A program made the translations under genes and the position numbers. Shown one piece after another: positions 3,817-63,451 of a stretch of 64,000 nt of DNA. Every line of letters begins with the position of its first letter. The stretch's first letter is position 1. The stretch lies in sequence record MT129652.1. One strand, given 5' to 3'. This stretch comes from Escherichia phage MN01. The notes under the pieces were generated by a model, which did not search any database, had not been told where the DNA came from, and worked only from the letters and a program-made list of their open reading frames with translations.

Positions 3817-4049
3817 GTATTGCAATTTATATTAAATCCGAGTCATGTGATTCTTATCTGTATTCCTATGACACTGGAACACCAGAAGAGAAAATCAAAG
3901 ATGATTTAGAAACTGATTTAGATATGTTCCGCCCGATTTCTGAATACAGAATTCAAACTTCTGATAGTGAATCTCCTTCATTGGAAAACAGACTTGAATT
4001 TTTAATGAGTGATATTTTTAACCAATCATGGAAACGTGACGATGAGTAA
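3813..4049 (+). CDS. Hypothetical acidic protein
   Basis: 78 aa; ATGA start/stop overlap with upstream gene. Confidence 0.45.
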   Translation: MSIAIYIKSESCDSYLYSYDTGTPEEKIKDDLETDLDMFRPISEYRIQTSDSESPSLENRLEFLMSDIFNQSWKRDDE

Positions 4050-4500
4050 GAAAAACAAGGTGAAAGAATTATCTGCTGGCATTATTTTCATGACTGAAGA
4101 TAAAGAGTTATTCATGGGTCGTGTGACTGGTTCTCGTAAACCAGGTATGCCTGCACACAAATGGGACATCCCTAAAGGTCATGTTGAAGCTGGTGAATCC
4201 CCGATTGAAGCGGCTATCCGTGAAACCGAAGAAGAAACCGGGTTTACTCAATACGACCCGGCATTCTTAAAGGACCTGGGCGAATTCCGTTATTCAGATA
4301 ACAAAAATCTTCACCTGTTTTTGTACACGGTTCCGGTCGAGCATGAGCAGTTCAGACATAGTAAATGCTCTGCCTATCATACCTTCCCGGATGGTAGTTC
4401 GATTCCAGAGTTCGATGCATTTGCTCTGATTAAACCAAGTCAATGGCAGTATGTGATGGGCAAATCGATGTACAAGGTACTGACTCAAATTTTCGGATAA
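4042..4500 (+). CDS. nudE: Nudix hydrolase NudE (e.1)
   Basis: Nudix box GHVEAGESPIEAAIRETEEETGF; position immediately upstream of lysozyme as in T4. Confidence 0.8.
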   Translation: MSKKNKVKELSAGIIFMTEDKELFMGRVTGSRKPGMPAHKWDIPKGHVEAGESPIEAAIRETEEETGFTQYDPAFLKDLGEFRYSDNKNLHLFLYTVPVEHEQFRHSKCSAYHTFPDGSSIPEFDAFALIKPSQWQYVMGKSMYKVLTQIFG

Positions 4501-4526
4501 TAAATACCCCTATATAAGGGGGTATT
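4497..4526 (+). promoter_or_regulatory. Late-promoter-like TAATAAATA plus hairpin sequestering the lysozyme SD
   Basis: AATACCCC (4503-4510) pairs with GGGGTATT (4519-4526); SD AGGGGG sits in the 3-prime arm; ATG at 4527. Confidence 0.5.
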
Positions 4527-5018
4527 ATGAATATATTCGAAATGTTACGCATAGATGAAGGTTGTAAGTTGGATTTGTATAAAGATACTGAAGGCTATTG
4601 GACCATTGGTATCGGGCAACTGATAACTAAGAACCCATCAAAAGATGTTGCTCGTGCCGAGCTCGACAAACTCATGGGTCGCGTCTGTAATGGTCGCATA
4701 ACCCAGCACGAAGCTGAAACATTGTTTAACCGTTCGGTCGAAAAAGCTAAAGCCGGAATCTTGAGACACCCTGTCTTAAAACCTGTTTATGATGTGCTAG
4801 ATGAAGTTCGTCGTTGTGCACTCATTAATATGGTATTCCAGATGGGTGTTGCTGGTGTTGCTGGTTTTCCTAAGGGTATGCGACTTCTGAAGTCTAAATC
4901 ATGGGAAGCAGCTGCTAAGGAACTGGCGGACTCAAGATGGTATAAAGTCCAGACTCCGAACCGAGCCAAACGAGTTATAGAAACGTTCCGTACTGGAACT
5001 TTTAGCGCATACAAATAA
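4527..5018 (+). CDS. e: Endolysin (T4 lysozyme e, muramidase)
   Basis: N-terminus [12 protein letters not shown]...[13 protein letters not shown] and [12 protein letters not shown]...PNRAKRVI closely match T4 lysozyme. Confidence 0.95.
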
Positions 5019-5026
5019 GGTAAAAT

Positions 5027-5329
5027 ATGAAAACGTATAAAGAATTTATCACCGAAGCGCGCGTAAGTGCAGGTAAATTAGAAGCCGCTGTAAATAAAAA
5101 GGCCCATTCATTTCATGATTTACCAGATAAAGACCGTAAGAAACTTGTAAGCCTTTATATTGACAAAGAGCGTATTCTAGCTCTCCCTGGCGCTAACGAA
5201 GGTAAACAGGCCAAGCCTTTGAATTCTGTCGAAAAGAAAATTGATAACTTTGCTTCTAAGTTCGGCATGTCTATGGATGACCTTCAGCAAGCGGCTATCG
5301 AAGCAGCTAAAGCAATTAAAGGTAAATAA
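5027..5329 (+). CDS. Internal head protein (IPIII/IPII-like) with capsid-targeting sequence
   Basis: Starts [11 protein letters not shown], matching the T4 internal-protein CTS MKTYQEFIAE with an I-x-E protease site; 100 aa; adjacent to e as in T4. Confidence 0.7.
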
Positions 5330-5331
5330 CA

Positions 5332-5384
5332 GTTTACTTCCACGATACGTGTGATATAATGTTCTCCTACAAACATAGGAGAAC
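5332..5384 (+). promoter_or_regulatory. Sigma70-type early promoter followed by SD-sequestering hairpin upstream of denV
   Basis: GTTTAC (5332-5337), 17-bp spacer, TATAAT (5355-5360); then GTTCTCCT/AGGAGAAC inverted repeat (5361-5384) containing the SD. Confidence 0.5.
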
Positions 5385-5388
5385 AAAC

Positions 5389-5805
5389 ATGACTCGCATT
5401 AATTTGACCCTGGTATCTGAACTTGCTGACCAACATCTTATGGCCGAATATCGTGAACTTCCTCGCGTGTTTGGCGCTGTTCGTAAGCATGTGCAAAATG
5501 GTAAAAAGGTTTCTGACTTTAAAATCCCATCATCTTTTCTTTTAGGGACTGGTCATGTCACCTTCTTTTATGATAAGCTTTTGTTCCTTAAAAACCGACA
5601 TCAAGAACTTATTGCGGAATGTTTAAAGCGAGGGTTTAACATAAAAGATATTTCTACCCAAGACTTAACTGATATTCCTGATGAATGGAAGAATGATTAT
5701 CAACCATCAATCTGGTCAATTGAAATCAGTCAAGCTAGGCTGAATGAGAAAATTTCTCAAAAGCCCGCTTGGTACAAATACTATGGGAAAGCTGTGTACG
5801 CTTAA
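5389..5805 (+). CDS. denV: Endonuclease V (pyrimidine-dimer DNA glycosylase)
   Basis: [35 protein letters not shown]... near-identical to T4 endonuclease V; 138 aa. Confidence 0.92.
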
Positions 5806-5853
5806 CTACAAAGGTTGTATAATGATTTTATCAACCAAACAATGGAATATAAA

Positions 5854-6153
5854 ATGAAAACTTATCAAGAATTTATTACTGAAGCCAAAGCTCCTAAAGC
5901 ATTTCAAATTGGGGTTCAGGGTAATTTAGACCAACAATATGTTGATGCTATTGTAGCAAGCCTCGGTAAACAGGGTGTACAAGTGGATTTGGTTGATTTT
6001 ACTAAAGGTAATACTTTTAATATTGTTACATCTAAAGGTTCTTTAGCTAAAGTTAAAAAGGCCTTTGGTGTAGCACAAGCATACGAAATCGACCATTCTG
6101 AATTAGAAAATAAAGGTCGCCAGAACACAATTAAAGGTTCTGGTTCTTTCTAA
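5854..6153 (+). CDS. Internal head protein (IPII-like) with capsid-targeting sequence
   Basis: Internal ATG gives MKTYQEFITEAKAPKAF...; CTS identical in pattern to T4 IP proteins; 99 aa. Confidence 0.7.
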   Translation: MKTYQEFITEAKAPKAFQIGVQGNLDQQYVDAIVASLGKQGVQVDLVDFTKGNTFNIVTSKGSLAKVKKAFGVAQAYEIDHSELENKGRQNTIKGSGSF

Positions 6154-7348: not shown

Positions 7349-7928
<580 letters not shown>

Positions 7929-7984
7929 TGTACAAGCAGATTGAAATGAGTTATGATTATCCCATCAAACAAAAGGAGATAATC

Positions 7985-8443
7985 ATGACTACTATCGATT
8001 CAAGTGTTTACATTCGCCGCAATAAACTTCGTCGCATTTTTGAAACGGAGTTCCTCAAAATTAATAATGCTATCAACAAGGCTTGTAAAGAAGCAGGCCT
8101 TGAAGCATTCTTCATTAAGTACAGTCCGCACCTGTTGGACCGTGCAATCCAACGTGAAATTGATGAACAATATGTTTTTGACTTGTTTGGAAAAATCACA
8201 CCACATGTAAAAGAAATCGTTGAATTCCTGGAGATGAAACCACTCCCGGAAGTTGAAGCACAAATTGACCCGAATGTGAACTACCGTCCACTTCGTCTGG
8301 AAATCACAGACAAGAACCTGTGGTTAGGAATGACAGTTAACCCGGCTCTTCCTGGGAAGTCTCCAACCATGTGTTGTCGTATGGCGTTTGTTAACTCTAA
8401 TCGTCTGGAAGGAAAAATTAGCACAAAAGTAATTTATATCTAA
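7985..8443 (+). CDS. regB: Probable RegB-like sequence-specific endoribonuclease
   Basis: MTTIDSSVYIRRNKLRRIFETEF... resembles the remembered T4 RegB N-terminus; 152 aa vs 153 aa in T4; lies between denV and tk as in T4; AAAAGGAG SD. Confidence 0.5.
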   Translation: MTTIDSSVYIRRNKLRRIFETEFLKINNAINKACKEAGLEAFFIKYSPHLLDRAIQREIDEQYVFDLFGKITPHVKEIVEFLEMKPLPEVEAQIDPNVNYRPLRLEITDKNLWLGMTVNPALPGKSPTMCCRMAFVNSNRLEGKISTKVIYI

Positions 8444-11832: not shown

Positions 11833-11899
11833 ATTTAGGGGGTTTACATCCTCATAAAAAGGGTGTACTATTATCCCATCAACTACTGAGGAGAACACA

Positions 11900-18862: not shown

Positions 18863-18892
18863 GTTTACTTCCAAGGATGGAGGGAGTATAAT
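18863..18892 (+). promoter_or_regulatory. Sigma70-type early promoter
   Basis: GTTTAC, 18-bp spacer, TATAAT; upstream of gene 18920. Confidence 0.45.
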
Positions 18893-22582: not shown

Positions 22583-22620
22583 TAATAAATACCCTTATCT
22601 AATAATGGTAAGGGTTTATT
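22583..22620 (+). promoter_or_regulatory. Late-promoter-like TAATAAATA plus hairpin sequestering the gene 49 start region
   Basis: AATAAATACCCTTA pairs with TAAGGGTTTATT immediately 5-prime of the ATG at 22621; same TAATAAATACCC motif as upstream of e. Confidence 0.5.
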
Positions 22621-38142: not shown

Positions 38143-38211
38143 GTGTTTACAACGGCAAAGGACTGCCGTATGATTACTCCATCAACTGATGATTAAATTA
38201 AGGATATTAAA

Positions 38212-42788: not shown

Positions 42789-42795
42789 GTGAACA

Positions 42796-42818
42796 AAGGG
42801 GCTTACAGCCCCTTTTTC
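42796..42818 (+). terminator. Rho-independent terminator
   Basis: GGGGC-TTACA-GCCCC + TTTTT. Confidence 0.6.
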
Positions 42819-42856
42819 TTATGTTATAATGACTCTATCAACTACTGGAGAATAAA

Positions 42857-49398: not shown

Positions 49399-49649
49399 AC
49401 TGGTTAACAAATATTCCCACATCGGCGCTGGATATCGACCGTAAACATGCTCATAAGGAAATCGAGCAACAAAAAATTAATCGGTTACAAAGGCTTAAGA
49501 CTGAATCCGAGACAATTAAAGCCGAACGACCGACAGAATCGAAAAGTTCTTACTCATCATATCAATCTCCTAACTCATCATATCAATCTCCTATTGGCAT
49601 GGCCGTAGACATTGCAGTCTTTGGCGTTCCACTTGGAGTGTTTAAGTAG
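49395..49649 (+). CDS. Hypothetical protein with SSYSSYQSPNSSYQSP repeat and hydrophobic tail
   Basis: Internal ATG at 49395; 84 aa. Confidence 0.35.
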   Translation: MNWLTNIPTSALDIDRKHAHKEIEQQKINRLQRLKTESETIKAERPTESKSSYSSYQSPNSSYQSPIGMAVDIAVFGVPLGVFK

Positions 49650-49705
49650 TTTACTTACTCCCCTCCTAATGACATAATGGTCTTTCTTACAACAGAGAGA
49701 CCATT

Positions 49706-50266
49706 ATGAACATCATCAAATCTGATACCGAACCCAACCAGTTAAAATTTAGTGAAATGGAGATAGCTTCATTATTTGAATGCCGCACATCAAAGGTTGA
49801 TAAGACCTTGCATTCAAATGTCAACTCAATCATCAAGTCAAGGTTGTCTATACCCGATACAGTCTTGTGGCGCGGAGTAACCCAGCAAGAGATTGATTTG
49901 TTAGATGAAGCAAAAGAATCAATGCAACCTTTTGAATTTGGACGGGTAACCTCCTTTACAGAAGACTATGGTATTGCCAGGGATTTTGCTGCAATGGAAT
50001 ATGTGACTAGGACTATCGTCAGATTGAATCAGACCAAAGCTTTTTGTTACCATGATGCGATGCGCAAAATCGCGCTTGACGTTCCACTGGAATTCTTCAA
50101 TACAGCTTCTGGTTCCGCCCGGGCAGCTACATTAAGGCGCGAAGAATACATGGACATGATTGATTCTGAGCTTGAATGGTTTGTTCCAGTTGACCAGAAA
50201 TTCGTGGTAGTTGACGCTGGATTTGTTGGTGATTATTATGTTCTTGACTGTGTACAAGAGCAATAA
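49706..50266 (+). CDS. ADP-ribosyltransferase, ModA/ModB-like (first copy)
   Basis: R-S-ExE triad candidates LWRGVT, TSFT, ELEWFVP; 186 aa; tandem with a paralog. Confidence 0.6.
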   Translation: MNIIKSDTEPNQLKFSEMEIASLFECRTSKVDKTLHSNVNSIIKSRLSIPDTVLWRGVTQQEIDLLDEAKESMQPFEFGRVTSFTEDYGIARDFAAMEYVTRTIVRLNQTKAFCYHDAMRKIALDVPLEFFNTASGSARAATLRREEYMDMIDSELEWFVPVDQKFVVVDAGFVGDYYVLDCVQEQ

Positions 50267-50310
50267 GACACGTTAAGATGTTCCTATCAACTACTGATGA
50301 GGATAATAAA

Positions 50311-55458: not shown

Positions 55459-55537
55459 ATTTAAAGTGTACAAACTCTTGGGGTCGGAGTATAATGACCC
55501 CACTGGAGAATAAACTTATTAACCAAGAGAGAAAATT

Positions 55538-56098
55538 ATGAAAGTTGAAGCTGGCGAAATCGTTCGCGTATCCAAAAAATCTCGTTCAAGAGCTGCTGGA
55601 CGTTTTGTTGAGGTTGTCAGTATTCGTGCTGATATTTTTGTTGACCATCCTGATAATGAAGTAAAGGTGCGTATCATTCCCAAAAATGGTCAGACTGAAA
55701 CTCAATTCGCTTATGTACGTGCTAAATTCCTGGAATCAACTGCTATCACTGCCACCAACCTCCCTGTGGTTGAAGAAGTTGAATCCCATGATGGATATGT
55801 GTGCGAAAGCAATGATATTCGTGGCGTAATTGCTCAAGACGTTGAAACCATTGACCAGTCTCATGTTGGGGTTGATTTTAAATGGAAATTGGGCAAAGGT
55901 GTCTTTTTTGTTTCACCTAAACCGTTTGAATATGTTGACGAACCTTTTGGTACTTATGAAACCACTAGCATGTCTGGTTACATCACAGACCAGTGGGTTG
56001 AAGAAGGCGTTAAGCTCTATAACATCGTGTTCCTTGGAACCTTTAAGGTGGTTCCTGAAAGCTTTATCGTTGAGTATGCTGATATTCATCGTGCCTAA
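55538..56098 (+). CDS. Hypothetical protein; paralog of 54703..55458
   Basis: 186 aa; C-terminal GYITDQWVEEGVKLYNIVFLGTFKVVPES. Confidence 0.55.
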   Translation: MKVEAGEIVRVSKKSRSRAAGRFVEVVSIRADIFVDHPDNEVKVRIIPKNGQTETQFAYVRAKFLESTAITATNLPVVEEVESHDGYVCESNDIRGVIAQDVETIDQSHVGVDFKWKLGKGVFFVSPKPFEYVDEPFGTYETTSMSGYITDQWVEEGVKLYNIVFLGTFKVVPESFIVEYADIHRA

Positions 56099-62473: not shown

Positions 62474-63451
62474 ATGTTTAATATCAAATGTATGTCTAAA
62501 GCCGAACAAGCTGATGTGGTCCAGATGTATTCAACGGGCAATTATACCCAGCCTGAATTGGCAGAATATTTTGCTGTGTCCGTTGACACCATTCGCCGCG
62601 TTTTGAAAAATGATAAAGAATCAAAATTAGCTAGAACCATTTCCGCATCACTGAAAGCAGCTGTTGGTGTGGCGATTAATGCTCCGGTGACAGTAACGGT
62701 TGAAGTCCCGGTTGCTGATACAATCGGCGGTAGCCGCCCGGAAATCGTATGGAACGCATCAAGCAAATTCGTTTCCATCACCGAAGGCCGCACGGTCTGG
62801 AACGCAACAAAAGACCATAAACACTTTGATGATATTATTCAGGCATTGATTGAATTCCGGTATGAAGATGCTATCGAGTTTATCTCTATCAAAGCTGCAG
62901 TGCAAAAATATGTGAAAGGTGATGTGCGTATTGAAGGTGGTAGCCTGTTCTATCAGGGAATTGAACTGCGCTCTGGTTTGGTTACTCGTATCATCGATTC
63001 AATGCAAAATGGCGAAGACTTTGAATTCTATCTGCCATTCCTTGAAAATCTCCTTGAGAACCCGAGTGAGAAAGCTGTACAGCGTTTGTTTGACTTCTTG
63101 GTTGCTAACGATATCGAAATCACCGAAGATGGCCATTTCATCGCCTGGAAAATGGTTCGTTCAACCTACAAAGATTGCCACTCAAATACATTCGACAACA
63201 GCCCTGGTCAATATGTTAAAATGCCGCGCTCTCGTGTGAATGACAATGACGAACAGACCTGTTCAACTGGGCTGCACGTTTGTTCTAAAGGTTATATCGG
63301 AAGTGGCTTTGGTCATGGTGATGGGCGCATCGTATCCTGTAAAGTTCACCCGCGCGATGTTGTAAGCATCCCGGTGGATTATTCCGATAGTAAGATGAGG
63401 GTTTGCGGTTACCTGGTTCTTGAAGATGTGACCGAACGTTTCAATGATTAA
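62474..63451 (+). CDS. rIIB: rIIB protein
   Basis: 325 aa directly downstream of rIIA with N-terminal helix-turn-helix-like segment (ELAEYFAVSVDTIRRVL); synteny. Confidence 0.7.
   Translation: MFNIKCMSKAEQADVVQMYSTGNYTQPELAEYFAVSVDTIRRVLKNDKESKLARTISASLKAAVGVAINAPVTVTVEVPVADTIGGSRPEIVWNASSKFVSITEGRTVWNATKDHKHFDDIIQALIEFRYEDAIEFISIKAAVQKYVKGDVRIEGGSLFYQGIELRSGLVTRIIDSMQNGEDFEFYLPFLENLLENPSEKAVQRLFDFLVANDIEITEDGHFIAWKMVRSTYKDCHSNTFDNSPGQYVKMPRSRVNDNDEQTCSTGLHVCSKGYIGSGFGHGDGRIVSCKVHPRDVVSIPVDYSDSKMRVCGYLVLEDVTERFND

Follow-up and report, generated by a model that had tools for sequence, protein, structure and literature searches.

An early promoter embedded in a predicted SD-hiding RNA hairpin: a probable translational insulator at denV of T4-type phages

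The denV locus and the predicted folding of its leaders

The window, meaning the whole 64,000-nt stretch of DNA that was analyzed, derives from a T4-type myovirus closest to the VR7/SP18 group and is 97% identical to Escherichia phage P896 over 1.7 kb. Its + strand carries nudE (4009-4500), the lysozyme gene e (4527-5018), an internal virion protein (ip) gene (5027-5329; phrog_7857), denV (5389-5805; phrog_1183, E 7.5e-62) and, downstream of denV, a second internal head protein gene (5854-6153). The product of denV is the 138-aa endonuclease V, a pyrimidine-dimer glycosylase. A capsid-targeting leader, MKTY(K/Q)EFITEA, is found in both ip genes that flank denV (window 5027-6153). The order e-ip-denV-ip seen here differs from e-ipIII-ipII-denV in T4 and from that of close relatives with denV directly 3' of e; these differences show module shuffling at the denV locus. 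Terminator scans found no + strand terminator-like sites between 1 and 5400, and read-through RNA into denV is therefore to be expected.

The TAA of the upstream ip gene (5327-5329) lies 2 nt from the -35 element of the denV promoter, and the 59-nt gap between this stop and the denV ATG houses both the promoter and an inverted repeat. As the preliminary description had claimed, a GTTTAC-17-TATAAT promoter precedes denV; it was read directly and located by script at 5332-5360 (+ strand). It comprises the -35 element GTTTAC (5332-5337), which is the T4 early-promoter consensus, a 17-nt spacer (5338-5354) that contains a small stem (CACG-ATA-CGTG, 5341-5351) and ends in an extended -10 TGn (5352-5354), and the -10 element TATAAT (5355-5360). 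The pattern GTTTAC-N14-TGN-TATAAT has one exact occurrence in the 64-kb window, for an expected number of 0.00 even with one mismatch. No late-promoter TATAAATA was found near denV.

The last T of the -10 element (5360) doubles as the first base of the 5' arm of the inverted repeat. This arm, TGTTCTCCTA (5360-5369), carries the anti-SD CUCCU and is followed by the 6-nt loop CAAACA (5370-5375) and the 3' arm TAGGAGAACA (5376-5385), all on the + strand. The denV SD, AGGAG at 5377-5381, falls inside the 3' arm, again as had been proposed, and stands 7 nt upstream of the denV ATG (5389-5391). The coordinates and sequences first given for the hairpin beside the promoter hold, while the stem, reported as 8/8, is 2 bp longer, with the two arms complementary at 10/10 positions. 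Within the 3' arm, GGAG followed by an A-rich tract forms a candidate RegB site. An intrinsic (rho-independent) terminator at the hairpin was considered and rejected: the sequence 3' of the hairpin is AAACAUGACUCG, with no U run, and the scans returned no match there. Rfam yielded no family matches, the sole sub-threshold hit being a chance match elsewhere (SNORD123, at 23 bits where the gathering score is 45).

The denV transcription start was placed from the distance to the -10 (7-9 nt), the presence of a pyrimidine-purine step and the consensus numbering. In the T4 early consensus, GTTTAC occupies -36 to -31 and the -10 element -12 to -7 (PMC1524935), numbering that puts the denV +1 at 5367-5368; T5368/A5369 is the only pyrimidine-purine step in range. 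The predicted start is thus 5367-5369, where the 5' arm ends. Earlier the start had been put simply inside the 5' arm; we infer more exactly that it falls on the final 1-2 nt of that arm or on the nucleotide that opens the loop. Any start in 5366-5369 keeps at most 4 nt of the 5' arm. The case for this hairpin hinges, as for others in which the 5' arm directly follows or overlaps the -10 (class A, below), on initiation 6-9 nt past the -10; a start at G5361 would retain the hairpin.

The folding energy of the 24-nt hairpin is -11.4 kcal/mol, compared with -2.0 +/- 1.8 kcal/mol for dinucleotide shuffles (z -5.24, 0/200), and in a 121-nt context the SD helix is present in the MFE and centroid structures alike. 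The unpaired probability of the denV SD in the long leader is about 0.00, a closure (<0.05) reached at only 14 of the 118 candidate gene starts on the + strand. Short leaders with their 5' end at 5365, 5367 or 5369 reach only -3.6 to -4.2 kcal/mol, no better than shuffles (z +0.7 to +1.0), and the SD on the short leader is partly closed (unpaired probability 0.29) by weak pairing with codons 8-10. Predicted folding therefore agrees with the original proposal that the long leader folds over the SD and the short leader exposes it. A helix of about -11 kcal/mol would lower translation and need not abolish it.

Conservation and covariation in two architectures

The comparison covered 80 denV loci from IMG/VR, T4 and eight named phages, with about 40 T4-type phages among them. 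For every denV examined from Tevenvirinae and Bragavirus, a GTTTAC-type promoter lies within ~60 nt, the SD is base-paired on read-through RNA, and the 5' arm is at or upstream of the predicted +1; the GTTTAC -35 is itself kept upstream of denV in nearly all T4-type loci. Six more named phages show a like fold (Winklervirus, Kanagawavirus, Tequatrovirus pSs-1, Marfavirus, Moonvirus and Bragavirus). Among 34 T4-type sequences, the long leader leaves the SD unpaired with a probability of no more than 0.03 in 29 and no more than 0.39 in all 34; in their predicted short leaders this probability rises to 0.28-0.74. All the denV SDs compared contain GGAG with an A-rich tract after it.

The 5' arm occupies one of two positions. 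In class A, which includes the window, Winklervirus LC53, Marfavirus EI, Bragavirus phiP4-3 and several IMG/VR genomes, it lies directly past the -10 or overlaps it. In class B, represented by T4 (GTTTAC-A-TCTCCTGTAG...CTACAGGAGA), Kanagawavirus and Moonvirus, it lies within the -35/-10 spacer, and the loop contains both the -10 and the start site; from this position, the class B 5' arm would certainly be upstream of any start, whatever the exact +1. The mean arm-pairing energy of class A is -13.4 kcal/mol at its own location against -4.3 kcal/mol at the class B location, and that of class B is -17.3 kcal/mol at its own location against -5.9 kcal/mol at the class A location. Among the denV carriers examined, the arrangement is absent from 346-378 kb jumbo phages, Tulanevirus IME13, Klebsiella phi1_146015 and marine metagenomic contigs; the jumbo-phage denV instead has a TTGAC promoter overlapped by a terminator-like stem. 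Three loci (L001-L003) encode DenV proteins that are 98-99% identical and have different upstream modules, indicating that promoter and arm were swapped and fitted anew to the SD region already in place.

Covariation was evaluated separately for the two classes. Among the 12 distinct class A sequences, 81% of cells are paired, compared with 41-55% when the partner is slid, and 18 cells at six pairs are altered on both sides; the covariation score of 0.352 exceeds the 0.07-0.13 of slid partners and was reached by none of 500 shuffles. Full class B leaders gave no consensus structure with MAFFT/RNAalifold, their SD registers being misaligned, and an alignment of the arms only, anchored solely on the invariant CTCC/GGAG core, was therefore used for the 13 distinct arm pairs. 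Each of the five pairs flanking the SD core shows three to six double changes. Column 11/30, for example, is UA in eight arm pairs, GC in four and AU in one, with none unpaired. Double-change cells number 32, against 16.2 +/- 2.8 in shuffles (0/500). Arms also pair better with their cognate partner than with the partner from another phage (p about 5e-4 for class A and for class B). Wobble pairs in the class A helix are asymmetric between strands, with 12 U.G cells and 2 A.C cells, an excess that points to a sense-strand RNA helix, its SD side fixed by the ribosome, and not to a DNA palindrome or operator.

Proposed control of denV translation and alternative explanations

The comparison strongly supports the preliminary interpretation, and all the sequence-level predictions of a promoter-split hairpin hold across phage genera. 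The arrangement is probably a cis-acting translational insulator, in which the early promoter of denV is embedded in an RNA hairpin that hides the SD. RNA derived from upstream, whether early read-through or late e/ip transcripts, would carry both arms and fold into the 10-bp helix, burying the denV SD so that 30S subunits could not bind. When host sigma-70 RNA polymerase uses the denV promoter, the start at about 5367-5369 would fall where the 5' arm ends, and the RNA would lack the anti-SD strand, leaving its SD exposed for translation. Production of DenV would thereby depend on the gene's own early promoter and be confined to the brief early-promoter burst. The purpose may be insulation from the abundant lysozyme/ip transcripts, which encode late proteins, and from upstream early promoters. 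The GGAG and A-rich tract exposed on the short RNA may in addition be a RegB site that sharpens the shut-off.

Two bodies of T4 work bear on this proposal. In T4, denV yields an early RNA and an early protein, while e, ipIII and ipII yield early RNA and late protein (PMC9697503 supplements). These omics data fit a scheme in which translation of denV uses the gene's own early transcript and the neighboring genes are held back; being silent on which transcript is translated, they are non-discriminating. For gene e of T4, there is a precedent for the size of such an effect, as structured long transcripts yield 100-fold less lysozyme (PMC3014915 section 29).

PeSL cassettes (Arbiol et al. 2010; Comeau et al. 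2014), which combine an AT-rich upstream region, a sigma-70-like early promoter, a stem-loop, an SD and an ATG, share this layout with denV, and the stem-loop might be the terminator or attenuator half of such a cassette, stopping upstream transcription and supplying homology for recombination while its overlap with the SD is incidental. The denV element answers formally to that definition. denV has an intergenic, strong sigma-70-like early promoter with an SD and ATG on its 3' side, a 5' arm that overlaps the -10 together with the small spacer stem at 5341-5351, and a hyperplastic setting of gene shuffling, with variable ip genes on its flanks and an upstream promoter module swapped among close relatives (L001-L003). 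The published cassettes run from early promoter through stem-loop and SD to ATG, and the stems of RB49 either sit in the -35/-10 interval or overlap the -10, one of them having acted as a strong terminator (PMC2839356; PMC4122927). Compact spacer stem-loops also occur at other early promoters of the window. We nevertheless regard this explanation as unlikely for denV, where the sequence signature of a terminator or attenuator is absent: the helix lacks a U-tract on its 3' side both in the window (AAACAUG) and in T4 (ACACUAAAAUG), and scanning for terminators gave no match there. PeSL stems are compact terminator/attenuator hairpins set apart from the SD, whereas the 3' arm at denV is always the SD itself, with a proposed role in translation, and its flanks covary with the promoter-side arm, which a terminator would not need. 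The helix has moreover shifted between two promoter positions while keeping the SD as its partner. The PeSL stems of the T4/PST set stand just upstream of the promoter.

An effect on the fate of the RNA, by which the helix would shield the GGAG of the SD from RegB on long transcripts or stabilize the 3' ends of processed upstream ip mRNAs, is improbable as a replacement for SD occlusion. RegB cleaves the GGAG of early SDs, structure protects against it and an A-rich 3' context favors it (PMC3014915), so that the GGAG and A-rich tract of every denV SD suit a scheme in which RegB sensitivity would be restricted to the short early transcript. However, an SD protected by pairing would still be untranslatable, and this effect would therefore add to occlusion. 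T4 regB itself has a promoter-embedded helix, which suits translation control at least equally well.

Under translational coupling, ribosomes that finish the upstream ip gene would open up the 5' arm, so that denV could be translated from the long RNA. This has some appeal in class B, where the upstream stop codon is ~8-13 nt from the 5' arm. It is very unlikely: in the window the stop (5327-5329) precedes the arm (5360) by 30 nt, which puts the arm out of reach of a terminating ribosome on established footprint sizes, and coupling would have no need of the promoter that is conserved along with the helix. That the repeat is a palindrome acting at the DNA level, as a protein operator or a cruciform at the promoter, or that it arose by chance, is scarcely credible: although the repeat overlaps the -10 and discriminator, as a repressor site might, the shuffle z of -5.2, compensatory changes in both classes and the 12 U.G against 2 A.C cells speak against it, and the arm sequences vary between genera, with no common operator sequence.

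The kind of mechanism proposed for denV is already known from T4 late promoters. In T4 e, soc, 49 and I-TevI, the DNA for the 5' strand of an SD-sequestering helix contains a late promoter (PMC3014915 section 29). The SD in these genes is sequestered on transcripts from upstream promoters, and denV has in common with them a stable helix (-11.4 kcal/mol, with covariation). The internal promoter removes the inhibitory arm, for which the equivalent at denV is predicted from the end of the -10 at 5360 and the +1 at 5367-5369. The difference lies in the promoter: e, soc, 49 and I-TevI rely on a gp55 late promoter, TATAAATA, and make late proteins, whereas the denV promoter is a sigma-70 early promoter and the T4 product is early. 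The temporal logic would thus be inverted at denV, with early expression allowed and read-through translation blocked, also late in infection. A second group, the homing-endonuclease genes Aeh1 mobE, T4 segB and I-TevII/III, possesses an RBS helix that limits read-through translation, as proposed at denV, but relief by a sigma-70 early promoter in the 5' arm is not described for these hairpins (PMC3014915). Neither denV nor any early-promoter case is among the switches listed in the T4 review (PMC3014915), and Hinton 2010 and Nolan 2006 mention neither denV nor such hairpins. The T4 denV hairpin as such may have been seen before, but no functional interpretation of it was found in the sources consulted. 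Possible stem-loops before ipIII, ipII and denV are reportedly noted in the abstract of Valerie et al. 1986.

The comparison with the lysozyme switch made in the preliminary description is apt, and the window contains that switch itself ~860 nt upstream of the denV hairpin (4503-4526). There, the hairpin AAUACCCCU/GGGGGUAUU (-13.1 kcal/mol) sequesters the SD of e and abuts the ATG at 4527, and a late-promoter-like TAATAAATA at 4498-4506 overlaps its 5' strand. Gene 49 (endonuclease VII, ATG 22621) likewise has an SD-sequestering hairpin, ACCCUUAUC/GGUAAGGGU at 22591-22615, like the known T4 gene 49 case, and a TAATAAATA at 22583-22591 precedes it.

If the proposal for denV is correct, the T4 device of a promoter inside an RBS-sequestering hairpin reaches beyond late promoters to host-type early ones, and production of an early repair enzyme would be limited to transcripts of its own short-lived promoter, shielded from heavy late e/ip transcription. 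The two interchangeable architectures with covarying arms provide an unusually clean natural experiment in RNA-structure selection across a promoter. There are also practical consequences for the annotation and engineering of T4-like therapeutic phages, in which moving or deleting the promoter would silence denV translation despite the presence of RNA. For synthetic biology, the element would offer a compact, portable insulator of the type 'translate only from this promoter'.

Similar arrangements at other early genes

Comparable pairings were found at several other genes. In the window, a modA-like ADP-ribosylase gene (49706-50266, ATG 49706) has a GTTTAC-18-CATAAT promoter within the span 49649-49708 and a 15-bp stem, CATAATGGTCTTTCT/AGAGAGACCATTATG, whose 5' arm extends from the -10 (49673-49687) and whose 3' arm (49694-49708) buries both SD and AUG. 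The region upstream of T4 modB (L091 2331-2390, minus strand) has the same class A design as the modA-like gene. A scan of T4 from 1 to 76 kb returned cognate pre-start:TIR duplexes of -14 to -22 kcal/mol at denV, regB, nrdC.8, modB and motB.2, each of which ranks first or second of 25 promoters. With e.8 included, the T4 subset has a spacer or discriminator strand complementary to its own SD region at -10.7 to -21.9 kcal/mol; the corresponding minus-strand ATGs in NC_000866.4 are at 62740 (regB), 53885 (nrdC.8), 13130 (modB), 8161 (motB.2) and 70623 (e.8).

Cognate pairing exceeds non-cognate pairing in a permutation test on the mean (p = 2e-4 for T4 and 4e-4 for the window), and a score above 0.8 is attained by 9/27 promoter-proximal starts against 14/111 other gene starts (Fisher p = 0.014). 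Taken over all early promoters, SD occlusion by pre-start sequence does not reach significance (Mann-Whitney p = 0.10 for the window, 0.13 for T4), and the design is therefore a feature of a subset and not universal. It is a tentative possibility, somewhat less probable than its opposite, that T4-type early cassettes follow a general design, with denV as one visible member, in which about a fifth to a third of early promoters encode in their spacer or discriminator an anti-TIR strand matched to the SD/AUG of their own gene. Under such a design, each of these genes would be translated only from its own promoter, which would explain the autonomous expression of shuffled cassettes inside long read-through transcripts. 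Many 'PeSL' stem-loops would then be translational insulators, not terminators, and PeSL cassettes would have to be reinterpreted if the pattern at regB, modB and others holds.

Two further candidates were noted in the window. At ATG 7985 (7928-7987), the -10 TATGAT with TATC (7953-7961) pairs with GATAATCAT (7978-7986) at -13.3 kcal/mol, and at ATG 55538 (55466-55540), the spacer CTCTTGG (55475-55481) pairs with CCAAGAG (55523-55529) at -11.5 kcal/mol; each of these cognate duplexes ranks first of 17 promoters.

The early promoters of T4 ipII and ipIII (L081 3219-3345 and 3916-4015, minus strand) contain long inverted repeats around the -10, for example CTCCTAGAATTGTGA/TCACAATTCTAGGA, with 3' arms that have at their end CTAGGAT, resembling a decayed SD, ~40 nt upstream of the real ip SD. 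This suggests insertion of ip genes 3' of what was once a promoter/SD-hairpin module. The denV promoters of L017 and pSs-1 are homologous to the T4 ipIII promoter.

Compact spacer stem-loops were observed at other early promoters of the window (11842-11871, 18863-18892, 38145-38174 and 42790-42830), exemplified by CGGCA-AAGGAC-TGCCG at 38153-38168. A terminator-like GGGGCT-TAC-AGCCCC+TTTTT at ~42792-42819 overlaps a -35 element. These compact stem-loops are PeSL-like and distinct from the SD-occluding type. Just 3' of the -10, many early promoters have a leader motif, (C)TATCAACTAC(T)G, found in the window at 11871-11884, 42834-42845 and 50286-50299 and also in the T4 denV leader, which may be part of the PeSL consensus. 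Among candidate early promoters in the window, GTGTAC often replaces GTTTAC as the -35 element (e.g. at 1216, 7928, 24032, 54385 and 55466).
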